In this document: positions 5,149-34,907 of the stretch, piece after piece
Layout: each line of letters starts with the position of its first letter
Numbering within the stretch: position 1 is the stretch's first letter
Assembly: GCA_937881735.1 (NCBI GenBank)
Contig: CALGEH010000220.1
Coordinates: 1 to 51,925 of the forward strand
Reading direction: 5' to 3'
DNA from: an uncultured Shimia sp.
GTDB taxonomy: Bacteria > Pseudomonadota > Alphaproteobacteria > Rhodobacterales > Rhodobacteraceae
DNA length: 51,925 nt
The notes under the pieces: model-generated
Databases searched by the model: none
Seen by the model: the letters and a program-made list of their open reading frames with translations, nothing else
Told to the model about the DNA's origin: nothing
Program-made: the position numbers and the translations under genes

Positions 5149-5358
5149 ATGAAGAATGAATGGATACTCGACGTTCTGGCCGATCTGCGGATTTTCGCGC
5201 AAGCGAATGATCTGGGCGCTCTGGCCGAGCAGCTTGACGATGCGCGCTTGATTGCGGCAACGGAGCTGGCGTCGAAAGGGGAAGGACACGCCGCACATGA
5301 GCGCAGTGCGTCAGGCATCGATGGATGCGATATTGGAGGGGCTGGACGCGGCTTCTGA
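5149..5358 (+). CDS. Small hypothetical protein overlapping the luxR start
   Basis: GAGG RBS; helical-looking WILDVLADLRIFAQANDLGALAEQLDDA sequence, similar to small proteins I recall upstream of luxR in Rhodobacteraceae. Confidence 0.7.
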   Translation: MKNEWILDVLADLRIFAQANDLGALAEQLDDARLIAATELASKGEGHAAHERSASGIDGCDIGGAGRGF

Positions 5359-6022
5359 ACTCTCTGCTTTGCAAGAGGTTATCGAGGGTTTGCGCGATCT
5401 CTTCCGCGTCGATCACATGGTCTATCACTGGGTCAGTGCGGCGGGCGATCAATATGGCTGCGGGACCTATGCGCCTGCTTGGGTCGCGCGTTATGTGGAG
5501 CGTGATTACCTCAGGATCGATCCGGTCATCATGGGCTGTTACCAGCATTTTCACCCCGTCGACTGGAAGCGCCTTGACTGGTCCAGCAAGGCCGCTCGGG
5601 CCTTCCAGAAAGAAGCGATCGAGCATGGCGTGGGCAATCAGGGCTATTCCGTGCCCGTGCGCGGCCCCAACGGGCAGTTCGCCCTCTATACGGTCAGTCA
5701 CAATTGCGACGATGCGGCATGGGCCACCTTCACCGAGAAAAACCGCCGCAGCCTCATCCTCATCGCGCATGCGTTCAACCAAAAGGCATTGGAGTTTGAG
5801 CCCGACCGCGTGCCTGAAACCGCACAGCCCCTGTCACCGCGCGAGGTGGACGCGATGACCCTTTTGGCGATGGGCTATAGCCGCGCGCAGGTGGCGCAGA
5901 CCCTGACAATTTCCGAACATACGCTGCGGGCCTACATCGAATCGGCGCGGTTCAAGCTGGGGGCGATGAACACCGTCCATGCGGTGGCCCGCGCGCTCAG
6001 CCGGGGTTTGATCGTGATCTGA
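5297..6022 (+). CDS. luxR: LuxR-family AHL-binding transcriptional regulator
   Basis: Autoinducer-binding residues WVARY, IDPV, PVDW and GNQG; C-terminal HTH LSPRE...GYSRAQVA...ISEHT...FKLG. Start is 5297 (GAAGGA upstream) or 5321. Confidence 0.93.
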   Translation: MSAVRQASMDAILEGLDAASELSALQEVIEGLRDLFRVDHMVYHWVSAAGDQYGCGTYAPAWVARYVERDYLRIDPVIMGCYQHFHPVDWKRLDWSSKAARAFQKEAIEHGVGNQGYSVPVRGPNGQFALYTVSHNCDDAAWATFTEKNRRSLILIAHAFNQKALEFEPDRVPETAQPLSPREVDAMTLLAMGYSRAQVAQTLTISEHTLRAYIESARFKLGAMNTVHAVARALSRGLIVI

Positions 6023-6049
6023 TCTACTTGGGCCGCGTCGCGGTCTGGC

Positions 6050-6916
6050 TCAGAGCGGCTCCGACGCGGCCCAATCCCAATACATCTCGCGCACACGGCG
6101 GGTCACGGGGCCCACCTGATAACTTGTGTCGTCAAAGGCGGACACAGCCGTCACCTTGCTCATATTGCCGGACAGAAAGACCTCATCAGCCTCGGTAAAA
6201 TCGGCGAAGCTGAGCACGGTTTCATGCACCTTCACCCCATCCGCGCGCAGGTTCGCCATATGCCGCGCCCGCGTGATCCCGGCCAAAAACGTGCCATTCG
6301 CCACCGGGGTGAAAACCTCGCCGTCCCGCACCATGAACACATTGGAGGTTGCCGTCTCCGCCACATTCCCCAGCGCATCTGCCACCAGCGCGTTGACGAA
6401 CCCTTTGGAGCGTGCCTCGGCCAGCATCCTTGCGTTGTTGGGGTAAAGACAGCCTGCCTTGGCGTTCACGACCGAGCTTTCCAGCACAGGGCGGCAAAAC
6501 CGCGTGCGCGTCAGCGTGACGGACGCGCCTGCCTGTGGCATCGGAATTTCCTCCAGCGCGATGGCAAAGCCTGCGCCCTCTGCGGCTGGCACAATTGCCA
6601 TATAGTCCGAGCCGACGCCCCAATACATCGGGCGGATATAGATCGGCGTGCCAGCGGGATAGGCGCGGAGCCCCTCGCGGATGATCTCGACCATATCTTC
6701 GGTGCGCACATGCGGGGTCAGCATCAAGGCCTCTGCCGAACTGTTGACCCGCGCGCAATGCGCCTCCAGATCGGGCACCAGCCCGTTCACGCAGCGCGCC
6801 CCGTCAAAGACCGAACTACCGAGCCATGCGCCGTGATCGGCGGCGCGCATGATGAGCGCGTCGCCTTCATGCCACTGCCCTTCGAAATAGGTCCGGATGT
6901 TCGTGCCAGTGGCCAT
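6050..6916 (-). CDS. Class IV PLP aminotransferase (branched-chain amino acid aminotransferase-like)
   Basis: VFDGAR, YIRP, AKAGCLYPN (PLP Lys), ETATSN and FLAGITR motifs. Confidence 0.9.
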   Translation of the reverse strand: MATGTNIRTYFEGQWHEGDALIMRAADHGAWLGSSVFDGARCVNGLVPDLEAHCARVNSSAEALMLTPHVRTEDMVEIIREGLRAYPAGTPIYIRPMYWGVGSDYMAIVPAAEGAGFAIALEEIPMPQAGASVTLTRTRFCRPVLESSVVNAKAGCLYPNNARMLAEARSKGFVNALVADALGNVAETATSNVFMVRDGEVFTPVANGTFLAGITRARHMANLRADGVKVHETVLSFADFTEADEVFLSGNMSKVTAVSAFDDTSYQVGPVTRRVREMYWDWAASEPL

Positions 6917-6980
6917 GTGCCGCCTCCCTTGTTGTCCCCTCAGGCTAAGCGCCGCAATGCCCGCCGTCCAGCGTCAGGAC

Positions 6981-8012
6981 CTAGCTGCCGACCATGCCCA
7001 CGATCTCATAGGTCCGCTTCAGGATCGGCGCCGCGATGGCCCGCGCATCCGCCGCACCGCGCGCGAGGATCGCGTCGATCTCGCCCGTGTCCTGCATCAA
7101 GCGGCTCATCTCTTGGGATATGGGGGCCATCTTGTCCACGGCCAGATCGGCCAGCGCCGGTTTGAACTCGGAAAACGCCCGCCCGCCCATGTCGCGCATC
7201 ACGTCCTCGGCGCTCATATCGGCGAGGCCTGCGTAAATATTCACGAGGTTGCGCGCCTCCGGGCGGCCCGCAAGACCCTCCAGATCCGACGGAAGCGGCT
7301 CTGCATCCGTCTTGGCCTTACGGATCTTCTTGGCGATGGTGTCGGCATCATCGGTCATGTTGATCCGGCTCATATCCGACGGGTCCGACTTGGACATTTT
7401 CTTCGATCCGTCGCGCAGGCTCATCACCCGCGTGGCGGCCCCTTCGATCACAGGCTCGGTGATCGGGAAGAAGTCCACGCCGTAGTCATGGTTGAACTTC
7501 GCTGCGATGTCACGGGTAAGCTCCAGGTGCTGCTTTTGATCCTCGCCCACGGGTACATGGGTCGCATGGTAGATCAGGATATCGGCGGCCATGAGCGCCG
7601 GGTATCCGAAGAGACCCAGCGAGGCGTTCTCCGCATTCTTGCCCGCCTTGTCCTTGAACTGCGTCATCCGCTTCATCCAGCCCATCCGCGCCACACAGCT
7701 CAGCACCCAACCAAGCTGCGCGTGTTCGGCCACCTGGCTTTGGTTGAAGAGGATGGATTTCTCCGGGTCCAGCCCCGAGGCGATGAACCCCGCACAAAGC
7801 TCGCGCGTGGCGCGGCGCAGGTTGTCGGGGTCCTGCCAGACGGTGATCGCATGCAAATCAACCATGCAATAGAGGCTCGGTGTGCCGCTCTCTTGCATCG
7901 CCACAAAGCGTTTGATTGCGCCGAGGTAATTGCCAAGCGTCAGCCCGCCCGAGGGCTGGATGCCGGAAAATACGCGGGGGGAATGGGGCCGCGTGTCAAT
8001 CGGTGCCGTCAT
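6981..8012 (-). CDS. trpS: Tryptophanyl-tRNA synthetase
   Basis: SGIQPSG-LTLGNY (HIGH variant), [25 protein letters not shown]. Confidence 0.97.
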
Positions 8013-8086
8013 GGCCGCGTCTCCTGTCTGGATTTCTGCGTGCGCCTCGCTTACCCATGCGCCAAAGCCCCGTCAAGGAGACGCGC

Positions 8087-8773
8087 ATGGATGCCCCCGC
8101 AAACCAAAGCCCGATCAACCCGCTTCCGCCTGTTGTGGTGGTGCTTTTCTTGGCGGTTTGTATCCCGGAGCTGATCTTTTTCGCGGGCGAGGCGGGGCTG
8201 GTGGGTGGCGCGCAGGCCGTGGGCTGGCGCAGTGCGGCGCTTCAGGATTATGCCTATAACGCCGACCTGATGGGGCAGATGTTCCGCGCCTCCGTCTATC
8301 CCGCCGAGCATCTGATGCGGCTTGTGACCTATCCTTTCGTGCATGGCTCGGTAACCGAGGCGATGTTTTCGGGCGTGATCCTGCTGGCCTTGGGCAAGTT
8401 CGTGGGCGAGGTTTATCGCGGCTGGGCGGTGCTGGCCGTATTCTTCGCCTCTGCCATCGCAGGCGCGCTGGTCTATACGGCGGTCGCGGGGCCGAACCCA
8501 TGGCTTTACGGCGCGTTCCCGGGCTCTTACGGGCTGATCGGGGCGTTCACGTTCCTTCTGTGGCTCAATCTGGGGTGCGCGGGGGCCAATCAGGCGCGGG
8601 CGTTCATGCTCATCGGCTTTTTGATGGGCGCGCAACTTCTCTTCAGCCTGCTCTTTGGTGGGGGCATGAAATGGGCGGCGGATCTTACGGGGTTTGCTAC
8701 CGGCTTCGGGCTGTCGTTCTTCGTCAGCCCCGGCGGGTGGGCTGCTTTTCTGGACTGTATCCGCCAGCGGTAA
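8087..8773 (+). CDS. Rhomboid-family membrane protein, probably catalytically inactive
   Basis: RLVTYPFVHGS rhomboid L1 motif and multiple TM helices; catalytic-motif positions read GAFPG and WAADLTG. AAGGAG RBS. Confidence 0.75.
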   Translation: MDAPANQSPINPLPPVVVVLFLAVCIPELIFFAGEAGLVGGAQAVGWRSAALQDYAYNADLMGQMFRASVYPAEHLMRLVTYPFVHGSVTEAMFSGVILLALGKFVGEVYRGWAVLAVFFASAIAGALVYTAVAGPNPWLYGAFPGSYGLIGAFTFLLWLNLGCAGANQARAFMLIGFLMGAQLLFSLLFGGGMKWAADLTGFATGFGLSFFVSPGGWAAFLDCIRQR

Positions 8774-8780
8774 GGGATGC

Positions 8781-10316
8781 CTACCTGCGTCGGAACATGC
8801 CGCGCAGCTCGTCCATGCGGAACGCACCCAGAAGCCGCCCGGCGATGAAATAGCTGACCGCTCCGATGGTGATAAGCAGCAAAAGCGTCAGCCACCGCCA
8901 GCCGGGAAGCCCGAAGAACGGCCCGATGGCCAGCAAGGTCATCCAGAGCACCACGCCCATGAGCGCCGCCGCCACGCAGATGCGCCAAACCCGGCGGCGG
9001 AACCGCGTGTCAAAGCGTGCCACCTCGCCAAACTGCCGCGTGCCGCGCGCCAGAAGCCACACCATAGCCCAGCCCGCCAGCGTCGTGGCAATCGCCGCCG
9101 CGATCCAGCCGATCACGGGTGCCAGGCCAATGGCGATGGCGGCATTCACCACCATGGCCACGACCGCGTAATGGAACGGGCGCTTGGTATCCTCGCGCGC
9201 GAAATAGATGGGCTGGAGCACTTTTTGCAAGACAAACGCAGGCAGGCCGAGGCCGTAGATGCCCACCGCCAGCGCCGTGGCCGCCGTGTCATCCGGGCCG
9301 AACGCGCCGCGCTCAAAGAGGACCGAGACTAGCGGGAAAGGCACCACCATCAGCGCCACAGCCGAAGGGATGGTAAGCGCCAGAGACAGCTCGCCCGCGC
9401 GGCTCAGCGCCTCGCGCCCGCCCGCCCCGTCGCCGGATTTGAGGCGTCGCGACAGGTCCGGCAGCAGCACGATCCCCACGGCGATCCCCACAACGCCCAG
9501 AGGCAATTGATACAGCCGATCGGCGGCATAGAGCCAGCTCACCGCATTGTCGAAATTCGACGCGACCTGCTGGCCCACCAGAAGGTTGATCTGCATGACG
9601 CCGCCCGCGAGGGCCGCAGGCACGGCTATGCGGACAAGCTGAGCCATATCGGGGGTCCAGCGGGGCCGCACCAGCCGCACGTTTTGCCCAGCGCGCCTTG
9701 CCGCCACCCAGACGAGGGCGAGCTGCGCGACCCCGGCGAAGGGGATGGTCCATACGAGCGCCTCGATCACCGCGCCGCCCATGATGACCGCGCCGATCAT
9801 CGCGGCGCAGAGCATGACGTTGAGCAGCACGGGTGCGGCGGCTGCGGCCACAAACCGCCCCGTGGAGTTTAACACCCCCGACAGCAGGGCAGCCAGAGAG
9901 ATGAACAGGATATAGGGAAAGACGATTCGCCCGAAGCCCACGGTCAGATCGAACCGCGCGTCCTGCGCGAACCCGCCCGCCGTGGCCCAGACCAGCGCGG
10001 GCATGAAGATCATCGACACGCCGGTCAGCAAGAGCAACACAAGGGCCAATCCGCTCATCGCTTGGCTGGCGAACCCATCGGGGTCCTGTCCGCCCTCAAG
10101 CCGTTTGGAGAACATCGGCACGAAGGCTGCGTTGAACGCGCCCTCGGCAAAGAACCGACGGAAGAGATTGGGCAGGCGGAAGGCGGCGACAAACGCATCC
10201 ATCAAAGGCCCCGGCCCGATAAAGCCCGCAATCAGAACGTCTCGCACCATCCCAAGCACCCGGCTCAGAAGCGTCCAGACCCCTACGGTCATCACGCCGC
10301 GCATCAGGCGGCTCAT
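8781..10316 (-). CDS. murJ: Lipid II flippase MurJ (MviN)
   Basis: SRVLGMVRD, AFRLPNLFRRFFAEGA, YAADRLYQLPLG, FERGAF. Confidence 0.96.
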   Translation of the reverse strand: MSRLMRGVMTVGVWTLLSRVLGMVRDVLIAGFIGPGPLMDAFVAAFRLPNLFRRFFAEGAFNAAFVPMFSKRLEGGQDPDGFASQAMSGLALVLLLLTGVSMIFMPALVWATAGGFAQDARFDLTVGFGRIVFPYILFISLAALLSGVLNSTGRFVAAAAAPVLLNVMLCAAMIGAVIMGGAVIEALVWTIPFAGVAQLALVWVAARRAGQNVRLVRPRWTPDMAQLVRIAVPAALAGGVMQINLLVGQQVASNFDNAVSWLYAADRLYQLPLGVVGIAVGIVLLPDLSRRLKSGDGAGGREALSRAGELSLALTIPSAVALMVVPFPLVSVLFERGAFGPDDTAATALAVGIYGLGLPAFVLQKVLQPIYFAREDTKRPFHYAVVAMVVNAAIAIGLAPVIGWIAAAIATTLAGWAMVWLLARGTRQFGEVARFDTRFRRRVWRICVAAALMGVVLWMTLLAIGPFFGLPGWRWLTLLLLITIGAVSYFIAGRLLGAFRMDELRGMFRRR

Positions 10317-13021
10317 GTGCTGGCCCTTTGCGCGCCCTCTGAAATGGCGAGGCGCAGCTTTTTCTCTAGCCCTTTTTGCTTCGCGTCCGAATGGAATTTC
10401 AGCCCGAACATATCTTTGACGTAGAACGTATCGACCACCTGCTCGCCATAGGTCGCGATGACGGCGCTGGCGATATACACATGCGCCTCGGCCAAGGTGC
10501 GGGTGAGGTCATAGAGAAGGCCCGGACGGTCTCGGGTGTCGACCTCGATGATGGTGTAAATTTCCGACCCTTCATTGTCGAAGGTGATGTGGGTGGGCAC
10601 CCGGAAGGCGCGCTCGCGCTTTTTGATCTTGTCACGCGATTGCATAGCGTCGGAGGCTTTGATCTCGCCCTTGAGGGTCTTGTTGATGGACGCGCTCAGC
10701 CGTGGCAGGCGCGCGGCCTCGTAGGGGTGTCCGTCGGCATCCTGCACCCAGAAAGCGGCGGTGGCGAAGCCGTCATTGGACGTGTAGGTCCGCGCGTCCA
10801 CCACATTGGCCCCGACAAGTGCCAAGGCCCCGGCAAGGCGCGAGAAGATGCCGGGGTGGTCGGCCATGACAAAACAGGCGCGGGTCGCGTCGCGGTCCTC
10901 GTCCACATCAAGATCGATGGCGATGTCGCCATCTTTTATATCGCGCAGAAGGCGGGCAAAGACGGCGTGGGCGGTGACATGCAGCCCCTGCCAATAGGGC
11001 GGATAGTGCCGCGCTGTCTCGCTCTTGAGATCGCGTGCGTCCCACCCCTTAAGCGCCTCGCGCAGGTTGCGTTTGGCGTCCGAGCCGCGCTGTTCGCGGT
11101 TGAGGTCTTCGAGCCCCCCCTCCATGGCGCGGCGCGTCTGGCGATAAAGCGCGCGGATGAGCGAGGCTTTCCAGTTGTTCCACGTGCCCGGCCCCACGCC
11201 GCGAATGTCGCAGACCGTGAGCACGCAGAGCATATCCAGCCGCTCGCGCGTCTGCACGGCCTTGGCGAAATCGCGCACGGTGCGCGGGTCGGCGATATCG
11301 CGTTTCTGCGCCATGTCGGACATCAGAAGATGATAGCGCACCAGCCATTCGGCGGTGTCCACCTCCTTGGGTTTGAGACCCAAACGCGGAGCCACTTTGC
11401 GCGTGATCTGCGCACCCAGGATGGAGTGGTCCTCGTCCCGCCCCTTGCCGATATCATGCAGCAAAAGTGCCACGTAAAGCACACGGCGGTTGATCCCCTC
11501 TTTCAGGATCGAAGAGGCGACAGGAAGCTCCTCGATAAGCTCCTCACGCTCGATCATGGCAAGGTGACGGATGCATTGGATCGTATGCTCGTCCACGGTG
11601 TAGTGGTGATACATGTTGAACTGCATCATTGCCACGATCGGCTCAAACTCCGGGATGAAGGTGCTGAGCACGCCAAGCTCGTTCATCCGGCGCAAGGCGC
11701 GCTCGGGGTTGCCGTGTTTGAGCAAAAGACCCACAAAGAGCTTTTGCGCCACAGGGTCTGCACGCAGGTCGTCGTCGATCAGGTCCAGATTGGCCGTGAC
11801 CAGCCGCATCGCATCGGGGTGAATGAAAAGCCCCGTGCGCAGCGCCTCCTCAAAGAGGCGCAGGATGTTCATCCGGTCGGCGAGGAACTCTGCATCATCG
11901 GCGATGGCAAGGCGGCCATGCACCTCCACATAGCCGGGCTTGAGCTTCTTGCGGCGGCGAAAGAGGCGTTGCAACAAAGGCTCTGACTTGACGTGATCGG
12001 CCTCAAGCTTGGTCAGGAAGATGCGTGTGAGATCGCCCACGGCGGTGGCGTGGCGGAAGTAATCTTGCATGAACACTTCGACGCCGCGCCGCCCTGCAGT
12101 ATCGGCATAGCCCATCCGCTCGGCCACCTCGACTTGGAGATCGAAGGTCAGCTGTTCGGTCGGGTGGCGGGTGACCAGATGCAGATGGCAGCGCACGGCC
12201 CAGAGAAAAGTCTCGGCCTGGATAAAGGTCTCAAATTCATCGGCTGTGAAGACCTTGAGGCGCACAAGCTCGGCAGCATCGGTGACGCGGTAGATATATT
12301 TGGCGATCCAAAAGAGCGATTGCAGGTCGCGCAGACCACCCTTGCCCTCTTTTACATTCGGCTCGACCATATACCGCTGGCCGCCCTGCTTTTCGTGGCG
12401 CGCATCGCGCTCCTCCAGCTTGGCCTCGATAAACGCGCGCTCGGAATTTTTGAACAGATCGTTCCAGAGCCTGTGGTTCAACTGCCCGGCCAGCTTTTGA
12501 TCGCCCGTCAGATACCGGTTTTCCAAAAGGGCGGTGCGGATTGTGAAATCATCGCCAGCAAGGCGCAGGCAATCGCCGATGGTGCGGCTGGCCTGGCCCA
12601 CTTTGAGGCGCAGGTCCCACAACATATAGAGCATGGTCTCGATCACGCTCTCGGCCCAGCCGGTGATCTTGTAGGGCGTGAGAAACAGCAGATCGACATC
12701 GGATTGTGGCGCCATTTCGCCGCGTCCATAGCCGCCCACGGCCATGAGGGTCAGGCGCTCGGCCTCGGTCGGGGTGGGCAGGGGGTGCAGGCGCATTGTG
12801 GCCAGTTCATGCACGCTCAGTACAAGGCAATCCGTCAGCCATGTATAGGCACGCGTGGCCGCGCGCGCTTCGAACGGATGGGTTGCCAGCGCTGCTGCAA
12901 TAGCGTCGCGTCCGCTCTTTTGGGCCGCACCGAGGATGCGCACCGCCTCGCCGCGCAAATCTTCTGTCGCGACGTCAGCCAGAGCCAGACGCACGGCCTC
13001 TCTATCGAACACATCCTGCAC
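10313..13021 (-). CDS. glnD: PII uridylyltransferase/uridylyl-removing enzyme
   Basis: AVGGYGRGEMAPQSDVDLL, EPNVKEGKGGLRD, HHYTVDEH, LLHDIGKG, two C-terminal ACT domains (DHPGIF, DRPGLL). The true start may be further upstream (CTG at 13078). Confidence 0.96.
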   Translation of the reverse strand: MQDVFDREAVRLALADVATEDLRGEAVRILGAAQKSGRDAIAAALATHPFEARAATRAYTWLTDCLVLSVHELATMRLHPLPTPTEAERLTLMAVGGYGRGEMAPQSDVDLLFLTPYKITGWAESVIETMLYMLWDLRLKVGQASRTIGDCLRLAGDDFTIRTALLENRYLTGDQKLAGQLNHRLWNDLFKNSERAFIEAKLEERDARHEKQGGQRYMVEPNVKEGKGGLRDLQSLFWIAKYIYRVTDAAELVRLKVFTADEFETFIQAETFLWAVRCHLHLVTRHPTEQLTFDLQVEVAERMGYADTAGRRGVEVFMQDYFRHATAVGDLTRIFLTKLEADHVKSEPLLQRLFRRRKKLKPGYVEVHGRLAIADDAEFLADRMNILRLFEEALRTGLFIHPDAMRLVTANLDLIDDDLRADPVAQKLFVGLLLKHGNPERALRRMNELGVLSTFIPEFEPIVAMMQFNMYHHYTVDEHTIQCIRHLAMIEREELIEELPVASSILKEGINRRVLYVALLLHDIGKGRDEDHSILGAQITRKVAPRLGLKPKEVDTAEWLVRYHLLMSDMAQKRDIADPRTVRDFAKAVQTRERLDMLCVLTVCDIRGVGPGTWNNWKASLIRALYRQTRRAMEGGLEDLNREQRGSDAKRNLREALKGWDARDLKSETARHYPPYWQGLHVTAHAVFARLLRDIKDGDIAIDLDVDEDRDATRACFVMADHPGIFSRLAGALALVGANVVDARTYTSNDGFATAAFWVQDADGHPYEAARLPRLSASINKTLKGEIKASDAMQSRDKIKKRERAFRVPTHITFDNEGSEIYTIIEVDTRDRPGLLYDLTRTLAEAHVYIASAVIATYGEQVVDTFYVKDMFGLKFHSDAKQKGLEKKLRLAISEGAQRAST

Positions 13022-13081
13022 GGGGCAGATCAGATCGTCCGGCGGAGTGGCAATTTTAGGGGTGGCGAGGTCTTGCAGTGT

Positions 13082-14269: not shown

Positions 14270-14358
14270 GGGGAACCTCTCACTCGGGTGACGGAAGGCG
14301 CGCGAAACGGCGCGCCGGGCGTTAACGGCAATCATAAACGACAGATGGGGCGGGTCCA

Positions 14359-15632: not shown

Positions 15633-15692
15633 ATTGCGCCTGCCAGGTGCATGGCCCATGTAGGAGCGGTGTATCATCCGCGGGGGCAGGCT

Positions 15693-23955: not shown

Positions 23956-23994
23956 GGCAACTTGGAAATTTGGACCAGAAAGAGGGCCTGACGC

Positions 23995-25505: not shown

Positions 25506-25517
25506 GAAGGATATGAC

Positions 25518-27530: not shown

Positions 27531-27594
27531 TCGCGGCGCTATTGCGCGATGCTTGGGCTTGCGTCATTCTCATATGCGGAATTGGGAGGCTCTT

Positions 27595-28050
27595 ATGCGC
27601 AAATTCATGGTCGTGCTGGACGATAGCCGCGAATGCCTCAACGCGATGCGTTTTGCCGCGATGCGGGCGGCACATACCCAAGGTGGCGTCACCGTTTTGT
27701 CGGTGATCTCGCCTGAGGAGTTCAACCACTGGATCGGGGTGGGCGACATCATGCGCGAGGAAAACCGCGAGCGGATCGAGGCGCATTTCGAGGTCTTCGC
27801 CAAATGGATGCGCGACAAGCAGGGCGTCGACCCCGAGCTTGTGATCCGTGAGGGAGAGCCTGTGGCCGAGATCATTGCGCAGGTGAACGAGGACCCGGAT
27901 GTGGGCGTTTTGGTTCTGGGCGCCGCGACGGACCGCAAGGGGCCAGGGCCTTTGGTCACGCAGCTTACGAAAAATGCAGGCGCGCTGCCCATTCCGATCA
28001 CGATCGTGCCCGGCGATCTGAGCAAGGAGCGGCTGGAGGCTATCACCTGA
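27595..28050 (+). CDS. Universal stress protein
   Basis: MRKFMVVLDDS, LVLGA, GPGPLV, PITIVP; GGGAGG RBS. Confidence 0.88.
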   Translation: MRKFMVVLDDSRECLNAMRFAAMRAAHTQGGVTVLSVISPEEFNHWIGVGDIMREENRERIEAHFEVFAKWMRDKQGVDPELVIREGEPVAEIIAQVNEDPDVGVLVLGAATDRKGPGPLVTQLTKNAGALPIPITIVPGDLSKERLEAIT

Positions 28051-28085
28051 GTGGCTTGGGGCGCGTTTCCTGACAGTGCCGCAGA

Positions 28086-28104
28086 GTTTAGAATCGTTCC
28101 AAAC
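28086..28104. promoter_or_regulatory. Irr/ICE box upstream of nfuA
   Basis: GTTTAGAA-TCG-TTCCAAAC, one mismatch to TTTAGAA-N3-TTCTAAA; directly before a CTTGAC -35 element. Confidence 0.7.
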
Positions 28105-28133
28105 CTTGACTCTGCGGGCCTGCATCCGCATAT
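28105..28133 (+). promoter_or_regulatory. Sigma70/RpoH-like promoter of nfuA
   Basis: CTTGAC-N17-GCATAT, resembling the alphaproteobacterial CTTGAC-N17-CTATAT consensus. Confidence 0.5.
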
Positions 28134-28162
28134 CTTGTAACAGCTATCAGGAGCGCCATCAC

Positions 28163-28726
28163 ATGTTCATCCAGACCGAATCCACGCCAAACCCCGCCAC
28201 GCTGAAGTTTTTGCCGGGCCAGTCTGTTTTGCCGATGGGCACTGCGGATTTCCCAAGCGCCGAGGGCGCGGAAAAATCTCCGCTGGCCACACGCATTTTC
28301 GCGGTTGAGGGCGTGTCGGGTGTTTTCTTTGGCACCGATTTCGTGACCGTCACTAAGGCGGATGCGGTGGAGTGGGATCACATCAAACCCGCCATTCTGG
28401 GCGCGATCATGGAGCATTTCCAATCCGGACTGCCCGTTATGGCCGAAGGCGCGGAAGCGGCCTCGGGCCACGCGGAACACACCGGGGAGGATAGCGAGAT
28501 CGTCGGCCAGATCAAAGAACTTCTCGACACGCGTGTGCGCCCAGCCGTGGCGCAAGATGGCGGTGACATTACCTTCCACGGGTTTGAGCGCGGCGTCGTT
28601 TACCTGCATATGCAAGGCGCTTGTGCGGGCTGCCCGTCCTCGACCATCACATTGAAGATGGGTATTGAGAACCTTCTGCGCCATTACATCCCCGAGGTGA
28701 CAGAGGTGCGCCCTGTTGGCGTCTGA
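28163..28726 (+). CDS. nfuA: NifU/NfuA-family Fe-S scaffold
   Basis: MFIQTESTPNPATLKF, VRPAVAQDGGD, GACAGCPSS. Confidence 0.92.
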   Translation: MFIQTESTPNPATLKFLPGQSVLPMGTADFPSAEGAEKSPLATRIFAVEGVSGVFFGTDFVTVTKADAVEWDHIKPAILGAIMEHFQSGLPVMAEGAEAASGHAEHTGEDSEIVGQIKELLDTRVRPAVAQDGGDITFHGFERGVVYLHMQGACAGCPSSTITLKMGIENLLRHYIPEVTEVRPVGV

Positions 28727-29315
28727 CGTTTACGTTCTGGCATTTGATACATCGGCCGCGCATTGCGCGGCCGCTTTGCTGTGTGGGGACCAATTGGTCG
28801 CCGCGCGGGCCGAGCCAATGAGCCGGGGGCAGGCCGAACGGCTGATCCCGCTCTGCGAGGATATTCTGGCCGAGGGTGGTACCGCTTGGGCCGACCTCAG
28901 TGCGATTGGCGTGGGCGTGGGCCCCGGCAATTTCACAGGCATACGGATCGCCGTGTCGGCGGCGCGCGGTCTGGCGCTTAGCCTTGATATCCCGGCGGTT
29001 GGGGTCACCATTTTCGACGCAATTTCCGAGGGGCATTCGGAGCCGCATCTGCCCGCCGTCGAAGCACCACGTGATCACGTCTATATCGCCGCACCGGGGG
29101 CCGAAGCCGCCTTGGTCGCGCTTGCCGATGCGGAGGCGATGGGCCTGCCCTTGGCCTTTGCACCTCCCGGTGCTGCCCTTGCAGAGGCGATTGCACGGAT
29201 TGCAATCCGCTGTGTGGGGGACGCACCCGCAGCACCCGCACCGCTCTACCTCAAGGCCGCAGATGCGGCACCTGCGCGAGACGCCCCACCGGTGATCATA
29301 GATGATCTCGCCTGA
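28716..29315 (+). CDS. tsaB: tRNA threonylcarbamoyladenosine biosynthesis protein TsaB
   Basis: LAFDTS, GVGPGNFTGIRI, PLYL. Confidence 0.92.
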   Translation: MASDVYVLAFDTSAAHCAAALLCGDQLVAARAEPMSRGQAERLIPLCEDILAEGGTAWADLSAIGVGVGPGNFTGIRIAVSAARGLALSLDIPAVGVTIFDAISEGHSEPHLPAVEAPRDHVYIAAPGAEAALVALADAEAMGLPLAFAPPGAALAEAIARIAIRCVGDAPAAPAPLYLKAADAAPARDAPPVIIDDLA

Positions 29316-29715
29316 GGCGGCGGCACGGCTTCATGGCTTGGCCTTTGCCGGGCAGGGGCGCGGTTGGCGCGTGGCGGAATTCGCCGATCTTTTCGCACAG
29401 CGCGGTGTGGTGTGTGTGGGGCGGCCCGAGGGGTTTGCCTTGACGCGCGTGATCGCGGATGAGGCGGAGCTGTTAACAATCGCCGTGGACCCCGAGGCGC
29501 AGAGGCAGGGCCACGCACGGTCATTGCTTGGCGAGATCGAGATGGCAGCGGCGGCTCAGGGTGCTGCACAGATGTTTCTGGAGGTGGCCGATGATAATCT
29601 GGCCGCGCGCGGGCTCTACACCGCTTCGGGCTATGCCGAGACGGGGCGGCGGCCGGGGTATTACGAACGCGCTACGGCGCGCGTCGATGCAATCTTGATG
29701 GTGAAAGCACTGTGA
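29302..29715 (+). CDS. rimI: RimI-like GNAT acetyltransferase
   Basis: ELLTIAV, QRQGHA, FLEVADDN, RRPGYY; follows tsaB. Confidence 0.85.
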   Translation: MISPEAAARLHGLAFAGQGRGWRVAEFADLFAQRGVVCVGRPEGFALTRVIADEAELLTIAVDPEAQRQGHARSLLGEIEMAAAAQGAAQMFLEVADDNLAARGLYTASGYAETGRRPGYYERATARVDAILMVKAL

Positions 29716-29780
29716 TAAACGCCCAGCACGGTCTAGCGTCCGCGTATAAGGATCGCTTCCCATGTCCGAGCTTGCCGCAG

Positions 29781-30029
29781 CTAAGCAATCTCGATTGTCG
29801 CGGCATCGTCGCCGGGACCAGCGGTTGCGATGCTCTTGGGCATTGCGAGCAGCAGCATCTTGCTCACTCTGAGCACGCTTTTGGGCGTTGGGCTCCTGCT
29901 GTCGCAGGCCGCATGGACGATGAGCGCGTTGCCCCTGATCGGGGCGGCCTGACTGCTCTGGCGCTTTTTTCGCTTGGCTTCGGGCTTCAGGTCACAAACC
30001 CCAAAGTAGATTGTCTTCCGGCTTGCCAT
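29781..30029 (-). CDS. Hypothetical basic protein (82 aa)
   Basis: GAGAGG RBS before the ATG at 30029 (MASRKTIYFGVCD...); fills the rimI-TauE gap; no recognisable family. Confidence 0.45.
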   Translation of the reverse strand: MASRKTIYFGVCDLKPEAKRKKRQSSQAAPIRGNALIVHAACDSRSPTPKSVLRVSKMLLLAMPKSIATAGPGDDAATIEIA

Positions 30030-30241
30030 TGCGCCTCTCAGGGCGACGGCAGGGGGCGGTGGCGGCGTGATTTTGGCCTTTGTGGCGTTCAAGCTGACCA
30101 CCTCAGAGACGTGAGCCTTTGGCCACGCGATAGGTCCAGTTCCGCACAGTTTTAGGGCCAGAGCGGAAAAATCCCCGCCTCAGGGCCTGCCGCCCGCCCT
30201 GCGCGCTTGCCAAGCCTGCGGCCATGGGCGTAGGAATCCCC

Positions 30242-31159
30242 ATGCAAATCTACCTGCCCATAGCCGAGGTTTCGGTCAACGCCTTCCTTTTGCTGGGGCT
30301 TGGTGGGATGGTCGGCGTGTTGTCAGGTATGTTCGGCGTGGGTGGCGGGTTTTTGATGACTCCGCTTCTTTTCTTCATCGGCATCCCGCCCGCGGTGGCC
30401 GTGGCCACGGAAGCGAACCAGATCGTCGCCTCGTCCTTCTCGGGGGTTCTTGCGCATTTCAGGCGCAAGACGGTCGATTTCCGCATGGGCACTGTGTTGC
30501 TCATCGGAGGTCTTGTCGGGGCCGCGATGGGGGTCGTGGTCTTCAACTATCTCAAAAGCCAGGGGCAGGTCGATCTGCTGGTGAAGCTTTGCTACGTCGT
30601 GTTCCTCGGGATCATCGGCGGGATGATGTTCATCGAGAGCCTCAGGGCGATCCGCAAGTCGCGCGCGGGCAATCCGGTGCCGACGCGCAAGAAACACAGC
30701 TGGATTCACAAGCTGCCCTTCAAGATGCGATTTCGCACATCGGGGCTTTATATCAGCGTGATCCCTCCGCTGATCGTGGGTGTTCTGGTGGGAGTTCTGG
30801 CGGCGATCATGGGCGTGGGTGGCGGGTTCATCATGGTGCCCGCGATGATTTATCTGCTGGGCATGCCGACCAAGGTCGTTGTGGGCACGTCGCTTTTTCA
30901 GATCATTTTCGTGACTGCGTTTACCACGATGCTGCACGCCACGACCAACTTCACCGTTGATGTGGTTCTGGCGGTTTTGCTGCTTGTGGGTGGTGTCTTG
31001 GGCGCACAGGTGGGGACAGTGATCGGGACCAAGATGAAGGCCGAGCAGTTGCGCATCTGGCTTGCGATCATGGTGCTGGCCGTGTGCTTCAAGCTTGCGC
31101 TTGATCTCCTGATCATGCCGGGTGAGCTTTACTCCATTGGCGCGGCGGCGGGGCATTGA
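30242..31159 (+). CDS. TauE/SafE (TSUP) family membrane protein
   Basis: MQIYLPIAE start; duplicated GVGGGF motifs; VVGTSLFQ. Confidence 0.9.
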   Translation: MQIYLPIAEVSVNAFLLLGLGGMVGVLSGMFGVGGGFLMTPLLFFIGIPPAVAVATEANQIVASSFSGVLAHFRRKTVDFRMGTVLLIGGLVGAAMGVVVFNYLKSQGQVDLLVKLCYVVFLGIIGGMMFIESLRAIRKSRAGNPVPTRKKHSWIHKLPFKMRFRTSGLYISVIPPLIVGVLVGVLAAIMGVGGGFIMVPAMIYLLGMPTKVVVGTSLFQIIFVTAFTTMLHATTNFTVDVVLAVLLLVGGVLGAQVGTVIGTKMKAEQLRIWLAIMVLAVCFKLALDLLIMPGELYSIGAAAGH

Positions 31160-31917
31160 TGCGGGTCCTCATCGCCCTTGCACTCATGCTGGCCGCCTTG
31201 CCTCTCCGGGCGGAGGAGGTCGTCCTCGGCCTCAGCAAAAATCAGATTTCGATCAACACCACGTTCGACGGGTCCGAGATTTTGCTCTTTGGTGCGATCA
31301 AACGCGATCGTGCGATCCCGGATGGCGAGCTTGGCGTGATTGTGGCCATTGCGGGCCCCTCGCAGGCGGTAAACGTGCGGCGCAAGGAGCGGCGGTTTGG
31401 TATCTGGGTCAATGTCGATGCTGTGGAAGTGGACGCGGCCCCGAGCTTTTATGCAGTAGCCACCAGCGGGCCGCTTGCTGATCTGCTGACCGAGGTCGAG
31501 GATCTGCGTCACCGAATTTCGATTCCTCGCGCGATCCGCTCCGTGGGCGCGCCGACCAGCGTCAGCGATGCGCAGACATTCACCGAAGCGGTGATCCGCA
31601 TCCGTAAGGCGAACGGCGCCTATAAGATTGAAGAAGGGGCAGTCGATCTCGCGGAGGAGACGCTCTTTCAGACGCAGATCGAGCTGCCTGCAAACCTCAC
31701 TGAGGGGGCCTATGCCACGCGGATTTTCCTGACCCGTGAGGGGCAGGTCGTCTCGCGATACGAGACGGTGATCGATGTGCGCAAAGTTGGGATGGAGCGG
31801 TGGCTCTTCGCCCTCTCGCGCGAGCAGCCTATCCTTTACGGACTGATGTCTTTGGCGATTGCTATCGCGGCCGGGTGGGGGGCGTCAGCGGCGTTCCGGC
31901 TCTTGCGGCAGGGGTGA
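31159..31917 (+). CDS. TIGR02186-like conserved membrane protein
   Basis: Signal peptide, FDGSEILLFGA, RKERRFGIWVN, PSFYAV, C-terminal TM; usual partner of the TauE gene. Confidence 0.82.
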   Translation: MRVLIALALMLAALPLRAEEVVLGLSKNQISINTTFDGSEILLFGAIKRDRAIPDGELGVIVAIAGPSQAVNVRRKERRFGIWVNVDAVEVDAAPSFYAVATSGPLADLLTEVEDLRHRISIPRAIRSVGAPTSVSDAQTFTEAVIRIRKANGAYKIEEGAVDLAEETLFQTQIELPANLTEGAYATRIFLTREGQVVSRYETVIDVRKVGMERWLFALSREQPILYGLMSLAIAIAAGWGASAAFRLLRQG

Positions 31918-31946
31918 TCTCGGGCGGTTCGTGTGCAGCGGGCGTG

Positions 31947-31981
31947 CGCCTTCGGCGAGGATATTTTCAGCAAGAAGAAGC
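31947..31981. repeat. REP-like intergenic element between convergent genes
   Basis: Hairpin CGCC-TTC-GGCG followed by AGGATATTTTCAGCAAGAAGAAG, similar to a short dispersed Rhodobacteraceae repeat as I recall it; only one clear copy in the window. Confidence 0.45.
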
Positions 31982-31987
31982 GGGGGC

Positions 31988-32698
31988 TCAGCCCCGGCCT
32001 ATATAGGGCATCTGCGTGGCCATCACGGTCATGAATTGCACATTGGCGTTGAGCGGCAGGATCGCCATATGCAGGACAGATCGGGCCGCATTTGCCACGT
32101 CCATCGTGTGCATGTCCGGCTGCGCCGCTTTCAGATTTGCCACCATTTCGGATTCCGCATTGCCGATGTCGATCTGCCCACAGGCGATGTTGAACGCGCG
32201 GCCATCGAGCGATAGCGTGCGGGTGAGCCCGGTGATGGCGTGTTTGCTGACCGTGTAGCAGACCGAGCCCGGGCGCGGCACATGGGCCGAGAGTGAGCCG
32301 TTATTGATGATGCGCCCGCCTTGTGGTGTCTGGTGGCGCATATGTTTGAAGGCGAGGCGGGCGGCGATGAACATGCCGCGCAGGTTGACGTTCATGACCT
32401 CGTCGAACGCCTCGACGGGGATCTCGTCAATGGGCGCGGAGGGGCCGAAGAGACCCGCATTGTTGAAGAGCGCGTCCAAGGGCGCATCCTTGCAGAACCG
32501 AGCGAAGGCGGCTTCCATCGCGGCGGGGTCGGTCACGTCGCAGGGCAGGGGGACGGCGTTTGGCTGCGTGTCAGCCAGCGCCTTAAGCTTGTCCGCGCGG
32601 CGCGCGATGAGCCCCACGCGCCAGCCGTTTTGCAAGAAAAGCTCCGCCGTGGCGAGGCCGATGCCGGAGCTTGCGCCGGTGATGAGGATGGATTTCAT
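31988..32698 (-). CDS. SDR-family oxidoreductase
   Basis: TGASSGIG, NNAG, NNGSLSA, YTVSK; ATGA overlap with the helicase. Confidence 0.92.
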   Translation of the reverse strand: MKSILITGASSGIGLATAELFLQNGWRVGLIARRADKLKALADTQPNAVPLPCDVTDPAAMEAAFARFCKDAPLDALFNNAGLFGPSAPIDEIPVEAFDEVMNVNLRGMFIAARLAFKHMRHQTPQGGRIINNGSLSAHVPRPGSVCYTVSKHAITGLTRTLSLDGRAFNIACGQIDIGNAESEMVANLKAAQPDMHTMDVANAARSVLHMAILPLNANVQFMTVMATQMPYIGRG

Positions 32699-34221
32699 TC
32701 GGATAGTGCCTCCAGGCTGAGGGGGGCGGGGGCGCTTTGCAGATCGTCGATGCGCAGCCCGCGTTCGGGTTTGGACAGTCGGTTGCGCACCACCCAGCAG
32801 AGCCGTTCTTCGGCGCGGGTGATGGCGACATAGGCGAGGCGTTTCCACAACGGTTGGCCCGCCTCGGAGCGGCCCATGCGGGCTGCGGCGTAAAGATCAG
32901 GCGCGAAGACCTGTACCGTGTTCCACTGGCTGCCTTGGGCCTTGTGGATGGTCACGGCGGCGCCATGCAGGAAGGTCGCGCCCATATTGGCCGCAAAAGG
33001 GATGAAGGGCTCTTCCTCGTCAGGTTTTTCGATTTTCACGATGGAGGCGGCGCTGACCTGCGGCTCCTCCGCGCCCATGACGTGCAGGCGCGAGAAGCCC
33101 GGTTTGCGGCCTGGTCCGAGATAGATGACCTGCGCGCCCTTGATCAGGCCGCGCGCCTCCAGATCGAGCCGCTTCTTGCGGTGTTTCATGGGAAGCTCGA
33201 TCCCGTCGCAGATGAGTGGCTCGCCCTCCAGCAGGGCCGTTTCCGGCGCGCCGTGGACCTTGCGAAAGGCGTGGATTAGCCGGATGCGGGTGGCGTTGCG
33301 CCAGACCAGAACGGGGCTGCGCGCCATAAGGTCCACCTCGACGCGTTCGGCCCATTGCACACGGTCATCGCGGCGGGCGGCGTCCTCGATCATGGTCCCG
33401 AAATGGTGAAATTCCAGCGCCGGATCGGCCAGCGCATGGGCCAGATCGAGGATCGGGTTGTCGGCGTCCTGGCGGTGCACGCGGCTGAGGATCAGCTTTG
33501 CTGGCTCTGGGAGGGTCTCGAACACCATCGCGCCAGATTGGTTCACTGGCGCAAGCTGCGCGGGATCACCGAACAGGATGAGCGTGGGAAATATCTCCTG
33601 CAAATCCTCCATCTGCTTTGCGTCGAGCATGCTTGCCTCATCGACGAAGCCCACGTCCAATGGTTCCTCCCGGCGCTTCCATCCGGTGATGAAATCGCTG
33701 CCCCGGAGACCGGCGGCGGCCAGCGCGCCGGGGATGGATTTGTTGTTTTGGTAGAACGCATGGGCGCGATCCAGCGCTTGCTCGGTCAGGCCTTCCACTT
33801 CGGGCCGCTCGCCATTGCCAGCCAGCCATTCGGCGATCCTCTCATACTCTGGGTCGTAAACGGGCGTATAGAGGATACGGTGGATCGTGGTTGCGGGCAC
33901 GCCGCGGTTGCGCAAAACGCTCGCGGCCTTGTTCGTCGGCGCGAGGATGGCGAGCGTGCGTTTGTCGCGCCGTTTGCGCCCCTCCCAATCGCCCGAGACC
34001 ACCTCAAGCCCGGCCTCCTCCAGCGCGTGGTAAAGCTGTGCCAGAAGCAGGGTTTTGCCTGATCCTGCCTTGCCGATGATTGCCATCACGCGGGTCTGCC
34101 CCTCGCGCGGGGGCAGGAGCGTGCCATTGTCGAGATCAATGCCCGCACCGCGCAGGGCCTCGGCGATGGCGTCATGCGCCTCGGCCTGATCGTCGGAATA
34201 TGTGAGCGCGGTGCTTGCCAT
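32695..34221 (-). CDS. ATP-dependent RecD-like SF1B helicase
   Basis: GKAGSGKT, APTNKAA, TIHRIL, VDEASM, GDPAQL, HRQ, TIHKAQGSQW, YVAITRA. Confidence 0.9.
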   Translation of the reverse strand: MASTALTYSDDQAEAHDAIAEALRGAGIDLDNGTLLPPREGQTRVMAIIGKAGSGKTLLLAQLYHALEEAGLEVVSGDWEGRKRRDKRTLAILAPTNKAASVLRNRGVPATTIHRILYTPVYDPEYERIAEWLAGNGERPEVEGLTEQALDRAHAFYQNNKSIPGALAAAGLRGSDFITGWKRREEPLDVGFVDEASMLDAKQMEDLQEIFPTLILFGDPAQLAPVNQSGAMVFETLPEPAKLILSRVHRQDADNPILDLAHALADPALEFHHFGTMIEDAARRDDRVQWAERVEVDLMARSPVLVWRNATRIRLIHAFRKVHGAPETALLEGEPLICDGIELPMKHRKKRLDLEARGLIKGAQVIYLGPGRKPGFSRLHVMGAEEPQVSAASIVKIEKPDEEEPFIPFAANMGATFLHGAAVTIHKAQGSQWNTVQVFAPDLYAAARMGRSEAGQPLWKRLAYVAITRAEERLCWVVRNRLSKPERGLRIDDLQSAPAPLSLEALSE

Positions 34222-34268
34222 GGCGCGATTCTATCTGGCGCGCGGAAAAGGTGCCAGCGAAAGCCGCG

Positions 34269-34907
34269 TCAGGCGGCCACGCGAGGACGGGCCATGGGTG
34301 CGGCAAGAGCGGCGCGGCGAAACCAAAGCTCGGAGATATCCGTGGAGAGGCGCGCACGGCGGGCGACGCGGGCGCGGTCCGCGTCCGTCAGACCCCAAAG
34401 ACCCGCGCTGACCCTGTCGCGGCCTGTGCCGTCTTGGCCCAGAACCTCGGGTGCGGACCCTATGAAACGGTAAATCCGCTCCATCCGCGCGTCGAACACG
34501 CCGATATAGTGGCGCAGGCCCAACCCGCGCAGCACCTCGCCCCCGCCCAGCATCAGGGCTGCCGCCACATGCGCCGCCGCGCCGGGTGCGAGGCAAAAGC
34601 GGGTGCATTCCCATGTGTCCCGAGCATGGACCGGACCGGAGGGCAACAGATGCTGAAAATGCTCGTTGATCATAGTGCGTCCGGCGGTGGGTAAAAGCCG
34701 CATCGAGCCGCCATGCAGCCCGTCAGGCCGCTGCCAGATCACGTAGAGCGGGTTTAGCGCGTCGTAGGCGTCACGCTCCTCGCCATTTGCGTCCACGGTG
34801 ACCTCCCAGCCAAGGCGGCGGGCGAATTGATCGGCCCGGTCGCGGTGCATGGAGTGGGCGAGATCCGGATAGTTCGAGATGTCGGTTCGGTAGATGAAGC
34901 GAAGCAT
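34269..34907 (-). CDS. luxI: Acyl-homoserine lactone synthase
   Basis: RADQFARRLGWEV, ERDAYD, SMRLLPT, WECTRFC: the conserved LuxI R/F/W/D/D/R/E/R residues are present. Confidence 0.93.
   Translation of the reverse strand: MLRFIYRTDISNYPDLAHSMHRDRADQFARRLGWEVTVDANGEERDAYDALNPLYVIWQRPDGLHGGSMRLLPTAGRTMINEHFQHLLPSGPVHARDTWECTRFCLAPGAAAHVAAALMLGGGEVLRGLGLRHYIGVFDARMERIYRFIGSAPEVLGQDGTGRDRVSAGLWGLTDADRARVARRARLSTDISELWFRRAALAAPMARPRVAA

Follow-up and report, generated by a model that had tools for sequence, protein, structure and literature searches.

Genes for LuxR-type regulators and LuxI-type signal synthases lie side by side in most roseobacters. The layout ccr-luxR-luxI-helicase, which the first-pass annotation had cited, is the B/B1 topology in the relevant passages of Cude and Buchan (2013, PMC3824088), with Dinoroseobacter shibae Dshi_2852/2851, P. 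inhibens PGA1_c03880/03890, Ruegeria KLH11 ssbRI and R. pomeroyi SPO0371/0372 as examples; a split B form appears neither in those passages nor in Table A1 of the same paper. Related arrangements are the LuxR solo 'group 2' of Subramoni et al. (2015, PMC4338825), which occurs in Roseovarius, among others, and has the order CR - luxR solo - helicase, and the orphan luxI genes (KLH11 sscI, the H, I and J topologies and the sphingomonad luxI solos), which the passages concerned ascribe to duplication or describe beside histidine kinases or truncated luxR (PMC3907830, PMC3824088, PMC4288048).

The window, the whole stretch of 51,925 nucleotides analysed here, resembles the B/B1 topology as given in those passages in that ccr precedes luxR, a helicase and then a short-chain dehydrogenase (SDR) follow luxI and a CtrA-type site stands before luxR, and its proteins are orthologous, by synteny and in trees, to those of intact cassettes. 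Unlike in that topology, luxR and luxI are 28.2 kb apart on opposite strands, and the window is therefore a derived split form and not a B1 member. With 'group 2' it shares a ccr-linked luxR without adjacent luxI, but the helicase has moved away together with luxI and luxI survives on the same contig, so that the window luxR is not a solo by loss; a LuxR solo has no orthologous luxI in its genome, and here one is present. Like the orphan luxI of roseobacters and sphingomonads, the window luxI lacks a neighbouring luxR; unlike them, it is a native, single-copy B-type gene that moved together with its flanking genes and upstream element, and its partner is intact. The window shows a known system in a new layout, and the split implies no new biochemistry. 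In open PMC and bioRxiv no paper was found on a split B-type pair in Roseovarius, although supplements may name cases (PMC3907830 Table S1, unlinked luxI).

Gene content of the window and orthology of the two halves

The features are as follows.

3649..4935, +, ccr, crotonyl-CoA carboxylase/reductase (TIGR01751, 599 bits, cut-off 379)
4965..4994, +, terminator-like hairpin and T-run 3' of ccr (consensus match only)
5113..5128, +, TTAA-N7-TTAAC, predicted full site of CtrA type, 5' of luxR
5297..6022, +, luxR, AHL-type regulator, intact and orthologous to the B-topology LuxR (Autoind_bind and GerE domains)
6023..6049 (27 nt), no strand, junction 1 between the 3' ends of luxR and aminotransferase, ancestral site of luxI
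6050..6916, -, class IV aminotransferase, convergent to luxR (NF009896, above cut-off)
6050..27530, block C: aminotransferase, trpS, rhomboid, murJ, glnD ... rpoH-type sigma factor, coaBC, dut, thiF, dcp
27531..27594, no strand, junction 2, dcp/usp (in the ancestral order dcp lay opposite pmm, and usp opposite the aminotransferase)
27595..34982, -, block B, moved and inverted: luxI-helicase-SDR, TM-tauE, rimI-tsaB-nifU-usp (~7.4 kb)
31988..32698, -, SDR, the B1-defining gene past the helicase
32695..34221, -, SF1B (RecD-like) helicase, next gene downstream of luxI in the ancestral order
34269..34907, -, luxI, intact, putative AHL synthase, orthologue of the B-topology LuxI (PF00765)
34902..34945, -, predicted 5'-leader hairpin pairing the luxI ribosome-binding site (-20.7 kcal/mol, z -3.9)
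34952..34982, -, luxI upstream element, CAACGCACG box then TTAACC, ~50 nt before the ATG, predicted promoter
34985..39665, -, core cluster kpsT-kpsE-kdsA-pmm, now next to luxI on its upstream side (junction 3)

Coordinates and domain matches agree with the first-pass annotation on an intact luxR 3' of ccr with no luxI behind it, on the 27 nt to the convergent 3' end of the aminotransferase, on an intact minus-strand luxI without adjacent luxR and followed by a RecD-like helicase, and on the start of luxI 77 nt past the pmm stop, downstream of the co-directional kpsT-kpsE-kdsA-pmm genes. The ancestral upstream neighbour of luxR is ccr, its 5' neighbour in 70 of 75 genus loci, and luxR begins 361 nt past it with the terminator-like hairpin in between. 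LuxR combines an autoinducer-binding domain with a C-terminal HTH and, aligned to QscR (3szt), has the W, Y, D, P, W and G which we take to be invariant in AHL-type LuxR proteins. LuxI is an open reading frame without stops, matches PF00765 at 71 bits against a cut-off of 24 (and NCBIfam TraI models, all under their cut-offs) and, aligned to the AHL synthases 3p2f and 1ro5, keeps the N-terminal R, F, W, an acidic cluster, a second R and E-x-x-R-F, presumably the active-site residues; it probably encodes an AHL-making synthase. The top NCBIfam match of the helicase is RecD2, at 67.5 bits far under the cut-off of 500. In the 93%-complete genome the window luxI is the only PF00765 match, and a second autoinducer-binding domain is present in two pieces at contig ends (C24/C240). 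No tRNA was found in the window, and its GC content is flat (0.55-0.68).

On sequence grounds, the window luxR and luxI are the two halves of one ccr-luxR-luxI-helicase-SDR B1 cassette. Both proteins are 55-82% identical to the adjacent pairs, from intact cassettes, of the genus, ccr stayed with luxR, and the helicase and SDR stayed with luxI. The luxR-side and luxI-side trees give the window genome (G000) the same nearest relatives, G120/G062/G168 and then G098/G124, and the rpoB tree, in which G032 had no match, recovers the same clade; the intact cassettes in the half-trees are those of the genus and not the named model proteins of the B1 topology, and 15 loci were left out as likely duplicates. 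Orphan luxI and solo luxR are frequent in roseobacters, according to passages of PMC3824088 and PMC3907830, and in the luxR-side FastTree the clade of the window genome is separated from the bulk of the genus, which would suit two unrelated genes of different lux clades, or horizontal replacement of one half. With both halves retaining their own B1 flanking genes, both 55-82% identical to adjacent pairs of the genus, and three trees agreeing on the nearest relatives, such an origin is largely refuted and highly improbable. The proposal that a rearrangement separated a cognate pair thus stands as regards orthology, congruent trees, kept flanks and the placement of both proteins in the ccr-linked clade, and by orthology the window LuxR would be expected to respond to the AHL of the window LuxI.

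Ancestral order, the rearrangement and its recurrence

The ancestral order is A (ccr luxR), B (luxI helicase ... usp), C (aminotransferase ... dcp) and E (pmm kps), complete in Marimonas G173, and A-B-C is present also in G177 and G179. Furthermore, dcp and pmm face each other at 14 of the 28 pmm loci, and kpsE-(kdsA)-pmm is a conserved core cluster in 27 of the 28. The window has the order A C B' E, in which block C keeps its outgroup order and its orientation relative to ccr-luxR, and a simple 29-kb inversion is therefore rejected. The 7.4-kb luxI block has moved, inverted, across a 21.5-kb block of kept orientation and has landed between dcp and pmm. The inverted split put forward earlier is thus correct for the luxI block, but not as a plain inversion, as the intervening DNA is mostly not inverted against the ancestral order. 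The split probably arose in the ancestor of one Roseovarius clade, either through a single inverted transposition or through two inversions, one nested in the other. Among the genomes compared, none showed an intermediate between the ancestral and window orders, and in G075 and G005 A-B is inverted relative to C, an order which allows a different sequence of events within the clade. Breakpoints mediated by repeats or insertion sequences were not apparent, none of the repeats listed (20 of the 53 direct families, 25 of the 60 inverted pairs) being present at the three junctions.

Since the genome assembly is fragmented (277 contigs), the layout might be a misassembly, a possibility which the first-pass annotation had raised and to which a single loose end at 27549 in run X5 could be added. 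Its probability is negligible, as the junctions are spanned by contigs of four metagenome runs from four other studies and are shared by independently assembled sister genomes. The luxR/aminotransferase junction is spanned in all four runs, pmm/luxI with an intact luxI in three, and dcp/usp in three of four, among the pieces listed; in the fourth run at pmm/luxI (X4), a contig of the same species joins pmm to a luxI allele with an apparent 120-nt deletion, from which the luxI start is absent. The named isolate records L095-L097 also carry pmm-luxI-helicase.

The layout is old and shared. Its luxR/aminotransferase and pmm/luxI junctions are common to G062, G120 and G168, and pmm/luxI is kept in five genomes including that of the window. 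G147 is collinear with window positions 1-40000 at 90-95% identity, except for 1.2 kb replaced by an insertion sequence at luxR and a contig break in luxI. Since dS between relatives sharing the layout is ~1-1.7, a recent or private event is not supported. G098/G124 derive from the window arrangement, luxI having then moved to metZ, and G098 shares the dcp/usp junction; the flanks left of block A are covered in four genomes only, which makes the sequence of steps linking the pmm and metZ layouts less certain.

Splits have also recurred. The pair is split in 21 of the 65 other genus genomes holding both genes, in five layouts with at least four origins; in the other layouts luxI follows trmD or metZ, or it points away from a divergent neighbour, motB or a parA-like gene. 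Split status changes four times on the luxI-side tree and on the rpoB tree, and a single origin is rejected (p-AU 3.6e-6, Seohaeicola rpoB left out). G025, with both genes at contig ends, was assigned neither split nor adjacent, and four of 43 adjacent genomes (G127, G135, G161, G162) were left out of the long-region comparison. The convergent junction past SDR shows 20 neighbour states in 57 genus loci, and the region is therefore generally fluid. The break would be near-neutral and tolerated, falling in a gap that separates two transcription units; however, only 3 of 149 from other genera are split among the family luxI matches listed (149 of 173 scored, 24 unlisted), so that the two genes mostly stay linked and to call the break strictly neutral may overstate the case.

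Predicted upstream elements and the capsule neighbourhood

The motif TTAA-N7-TTAA is found upstream of luxR in 18 of 21 split, 38 of 39 adjacent and 56 of 62 outgroup regions, and at only 14 sites in the 2.47-Mb genome. The CtrA consensus and the D. shibae luxR2 sites are those of PMC4046655, and by analogy with luxR2I2 of D. shibae, CtrA would activate the window luxR. The luxI upstream element begins 2 nt past the pmm stop and lies wholly within the 77-nt gap. Its TTAA[CG], ~50 nt before luxI, is conserved in 22 of the 23 split genomes, in 35 of 39 with an adjacent pair and in 45 of 65 from the outgroup, against 15 of 585 background genes, and is kept in all three splits outside the genus; this conservation suggests a promoter. 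A full CtrA site at luxI was considered and rejected, as TTAA-N6-TTAA is shared with G147 only among split genomes, the TTAAC half alone being general; a sigma-70 scan, which suits alphaproteobacteria poorly, found no luxI promoter. Pairing of the luxI Shine-Dalgarno sequence is predicted for 21 of the 23 split leaders, 36 of 38 adjacent and 50 of 57 outgroup ones, versus 305 of 663 in the background. The comparison thereby delimits a minimal luxI upstream module of box, TTAAC and leader hairpin, of which the literature passages covered hold no description.

It is probable, with good confidence, that a roseobacter cassette was split by the inverted 7.4-kb move across 21.5 kb and that the pair likely still works, because each gene retains a predicted promoter of its own and the signal can diffuse. 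luxI would be transcribed from its own element, and its product would make an AHL sensed in trans by the window LuxR. Splits are likely tolerated for the same reason of separate predicted promoters. In passages of PMC3907830 SsbR does not activate ssbI and the effect of PgaR on pgaI is minor, so that in these studied orthologues linkage does not form an autoinduction unit; in D. shibae papers (including PMC4046655) luxR2I2 is termed an operon.

The first-pass annotation had suggested that luxI was newly coupled to capsule gene transcription. luxI is indeed co-directional with kpsT-kpsE-kdsA-pmm, no terminator is predicted in the 77-nt gap, G147 and G168 have a gap of 77-79 nt as well, the junction has been retained in the five genomes above, and pmm transcripts may read through into luxI. 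That the relocation placed AHL synthesis under the capsule export transcript is nevertheless unlikely, and the suggestion is unsupported: the gap is occupied by the conserved element of luxI itself and measures 152-184 nt in G120 and G062, the other three split origins place luxI by different, unrelated genes (two of them divergent), and among descendants of the window arrangement G098/G124 moved luxI away from pmm while G072, G112 and G119 deleted it. Also unlikely, and speculative, is a broader proposal, in which Roseovarius uncoupled this luxR-luxI pair, the most widespread of the family, at least four times at a gap of a few tens of bases, luxI being a self-contained module with a genus-enriched box; this would offer a route to orphan luxI and solo luxR, and the new addresses (kps-pmm, trmD, metZ, motB) would rewire output to capsule, translation, methionine or flagellar status through read-through or shared regulation.

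Selection, loss of luxI and adjacency surveys

Purifying selection on luxI is similar in both arrangements (dN/dS 0.06-0.20 in 11 split pairs versus 0.07-0.21 in 10 adjacent pairs), and relaxation after the split was not seen by this crude pairwise NG86 estimate, in which dS is often close to saturation. Genomes in which luxI was not found, leaving a true solo luxR, occur in four of the five split layouts. One explanation is that the split is a step in circuit decay, the genes being uncoupled, luxI leaving and luxR becoming a solo that senses foreign signals. The site taken up by luxI after the split is cleanly empty of it in G072, G112 and G119, which have pmm-helicase, and in G078 and G144, which have metZ-helicase, and luxI was not found in G007 and G019; the luxR of G078/G144 forms a long branch (45-47% identity), pairs lacking luxI show a higher dN/dS for luxR (0.16, 0.18), G147 has both genes broken (luxR cut after codon 26 by an IS6-type element, luxI with a stop at codon 99), and run X4 holds the deletion allele. 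However, lineages that never split have also lost luxI, giving the 'group 2' deletion form luxR-helicase (G099, G110, G137, G139, G164, G156), while 21 other split genomes retain both genes under purifying selection much as in adjacent pairs (over saturating dS), with the predicted luxR and luxI promoter elements in place. Decay thus has a minor though appreciable chance, and a pair that still works remains the preferred reading.

LuxI2 represses the gene transfer agent (PMC5786225), which prompted the idea that splits accompany loss of that agent; no link emerged, PF13547 being present in 73 of 80 genomes and in 21 of 25 split-type or contig-end genomes searched.

As predicted in the first-pass annotation, pipelines that rely on adjacency would score a solo LuxR and an orphan LuxI here, although the partners lie on one contig. 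Such surveys, which treat the two as separate biology, would miscount about one third of the genus genomes with the pair (the 21 of 65 and the window genome), although these have both partners in conserved form. A series from joined to split, to luxI lost, to divergent luxR can be followed across extant genomes, of which several have named cultured records, and it makes both the functional importance of luxR-luxI linkage and the origin of solos testable.

Layout, kinship and reality of the split cassette

Genome G000 (2.47 Mb, 93% complete) encodes on its contig C220 both an AHL-type regulator and an AHL synthase, intact and alignable with solved LuxR proteins and solved AHL synthases, respectively. 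All gene positions in the first-pass annotation were confirmed:

3649-4935, + strand, ccr
5297-6022, + strand, luxR
6050-6916, - strand, aminotransferase
34269-34907, - strand, luxI

The gap between luxR and the aminotransferase is 27 nt, while luxI, the only PF00765 match in the genome, is adjoined by the SDR and helicase genes and, on its other side after 77 nt, by pmm-kdsA-kpsE-kpsT. Two complementary pieces of a second autoinducer-binding domain sit at the ends of two contigs (L003 and L004, on C24 and C240) and are probably one further luxR cut by the assembly.

In the available text of Cude and Buchan (PMC3824088), topology B is ccr-luxR-luxI-helicase, and B1 adds the SDR; like B1, the window has ccr beside luxR and helicase-SDR beside luxI. 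FastTree half-trees of plsB-ccr-luxR (126 rows) and luxI-helicase-SDR (78 rows) both place G120, G062 and G168 nearest to G000, followed by G098 and G124, and this clade is also found in an rpoB DNA tree (SH-aLRT 98). The flanking genes and matching half-trees thus bear out the proposal that the two genes are halves of one ccr-linked cassette, the known roseobacter B/B1 pair, and the concern that pipelines would score a solo LuxR and an orphan LuxI was justified.

The window was compared with contigs from four metagenome runs, each from a different study and none marked as its source. The luxR-aminotransferase junction is bridged in all four, pmm-luxI (with luxI intact) in three, and dcp-usp in three among the pieces listed, run X5 showing one loose end at 27549. 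The first two junctions are common to G062, G120 and G168, and the named records L095-L097 give the order kps-kdsA-pmm-luxI-helicase. Misassembly is thereby discounted and the junctions are real. Genome G147 is collinear with window positions 1-40000 at 90-95% identity, except where an IS has replaced sequence at luxR and where a contig ends within luxI. The feature, a split form of a known quorum-sensing cassette, is genuine and old, is shared with relatives and has recurred. No report of a split B-type form was found in a search of open-access papers (PMC and bioRxiv).

Block movement and recurrence of splitting

The rearrangement can be described by four blocks:

Block A: plsB ccr luxR
Block B, 7.4 kb: luxI helicase TM tauE ... 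rimI tsaB nifU usp
Block C, 21.5 kb: aminotransferase trpS ... dcp
Block E: pmm kps

The complete order A-B-C-E is carried by Marimonas G173 and A-B-C also by G177 and G179; usp comes after the aminotransferase in seven of eight matched outgroup genomes, and at 14/28 loci dcp and pmm face each other. Set against this ancestral order, the window order A C B' E indicates that block B crossed block C in inverted form, the orientation of block C remaining unchanged. Relocation would have required one inverted transposition or two nested inversions; no repeats were found at the joints among the listed repeats of the window. G098 has the same dcp-usp junction and TM beside pmm, with luxI-helicase-SDR now at metZ and block A inverted, so that a single origin accounts for the pmm and the metZ layout, both of the luxR-luxI edges having been broken twice; outgroup orientation is the basis for the polarity of these layouts. 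Since A-B is inverted against C in G075 and G005, another order of events is possible.

A private or novel event is not what the genus (called Roseovarius here) reveals, the arrangement being old, present in close relatives and recurrent. Among 146 other genomes, 65 hold both orthologues (43 adjacent, 22 non-adjacent), 15 luxR only and two luxI only. Leaving out G025, where both genes lie at contig ends, the 21 resolved splits sort into five layouts according to the gene that luxI lies behind: pmm (3), a parA-like gene near parE (7), trmD (2), metZ (2) and motB (7). Split status needs four changes on the luxI-side and rpoB trees alike. A single origin of the splits was rejected (58 rows, p-AU 3.6e-6). 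In a family scan of one genome per genus, with 149 of 173 luxI-bearing genomes scored, 140 were adjacent, three had small inserts, two contig-end breaks, one no luxR match, and three were split; splits therefore look commoner in the genus, on counts without tree-length normalisation. Gene order around the cassette is generally fluid: at the junction beyond the SDR, 20 neighbour states were counted across 57 genus loci vs nine across 38 outgroup loci. In five genomes (G014, G021, G061, G113, G026; L239, L241, L245, L264, L243) the ccr-luxR edge is broken instead, and luxR and luxI are still together. In G015 and G022 (L179-L180, L183-L184) the two genes share a strand, 37-45 kb apart, and the housekeeping genes seen in the flanks examined (type I secretion, mlaA, PBP, rpsP-rimM-trmD) suggest that the block is native and not a foreign island.

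Upstream elements and the capsule neighbourhood

Three predicted elements accompany the separated genes:

5113-5128, CtrA-type site TTAA-N7-TTAAC before luxR
34902-34945, - strand, luxI leader hairpin pairing the ribosome-binding site
34974-34982, - strand, CAACGC.CG-type box ahead of the luxI TTAA[CG]

The luxR site, one of 14 such sites in the G000 genome, is kept in 18/21 split, 38/39 adjacent and 56/62 outgroup regions. An ORF on contig C155 is presumably CtrA-like, judged by a motif. According to the available text of PMC4046655 and PMC6473078, CtrA sites are present at the D. shibae orthologue luxR2, and luxR2I2 is CtrA-dependent. About 50 nt upstream of luxI, TTAA[CG] occurs in 22/23 split, 35/39 adjacent and 45/65 outgroup cases (background genes, 15/585), and in all three splits outside the genus. 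The box preceding it is common in the genus (44/62; 15/23 split, 29/39 adjacent) and rare outside (8/65), and the strict two-part pattern occurs at two places in the G000 genome, upstream of luxI and inside the SDR gene. The leader hairpin, predicted across the family (107/118 scored vs 305/663 background), may be a translational control element.

As luxR and luxI each keep their own predicted upstream site, their separation would be tolerated. In the available text of PMC3907830, the orthologue SsbR does not activate ssbI and the effect of PgaR is minor; such slight control of luxI by LuxR in the studied orthologues would be in line with this tolerance. Split and adjacent pairs have similar pairwise dN/dS (luxI, 0.06-0.20 vs 0.07-0.21; luxR, 0.02-0.17 vs 0.02-0.11), values which are crude and often near saturation.

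Relocation had also been proposed to couple luxI newly to capsule transcription. No terminator was predicted in the pmm-to-luxI direction in the window, G120 or G062, so read-through may occur, yet such coupling is improbable. Divergence from G120 and G168 (dS 1-1.7) marks the arrangement as old, the kps-pmm cluster belongs to the core (27/28 loci), other split origins have other luxI neighbours, and descendants of the arrangement have moved or deleted luxI. Moreover, the pmm-luxI gap is luxI's own module: about 78 nt of the luxR-luxI gap in adjacent genomes (median 97 nt, 38 loci) belong to it, and in the window 2 nt separate the element from the pmm stop, which puts the break right at the element's border.

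Loss and decay of luxI

Against a stable working pair stand the deletion of luxI at the post-split site in five genomes (G072, G112, G119, G078, G144), four of which retain non-orthologous luxI homologues, and the state of G147, the nearest relative, where luxR is truncated by an IS6-type element after codon 26 and codon 99 of luxI is a stop. On G147 contig C329 (L398:2281-3100) the transposase (PF13610) replaces the rest of luxR together with the aminotransferase 3' portion, and luxI ends at a contig break. No luxI was found in G007 or G019. In run X4, a contig of depth ~6, with at least 255 nt to either side of the gap, is missing the 120 nt at 34787-34906, which lie between 8-nt direct repeats; the start codon and the first 40 codons of luxI are gone with them, and the contig likely represents a natural luxI-null allele of the G000 species. 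Loss is not specific to splits, as luxI has also been lost in never-split lineages, and ccr-luxR-helicase solos are already listed for Roseovarius in the available text of Subramoni et al. (PMC4338825). Decayed luxI genes are common across the genus. Among adjacent-type genomes, luxI is interrupted by ~1.2 kb in G162 (C43:305641-307396), and in-frame stops occur in the luxI genes of G075 and G094 (L055, L058).

No tie between splitting and GTA presence was found across the genus genomes. GTA_TIM, present in 73/80 genus genomes, had no match in G000 or G147, nor HK97 capsid in G000, both assemblies being fragmented; the GTA cluster may have been lost in this species pair. The ccr-linked LuxR of G078 and G144 (L225, L232) is sharply diverged after luxI loss (45-47% identity, long branch), making these proteins candidate solos with a changed ligand, judged from sequence. 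A sigma-70-like match (CTGGCA-18-TAGAAT, 34228-34257, - strand) lies just before the helicase, which fits the helicase outliving luxI deletions.
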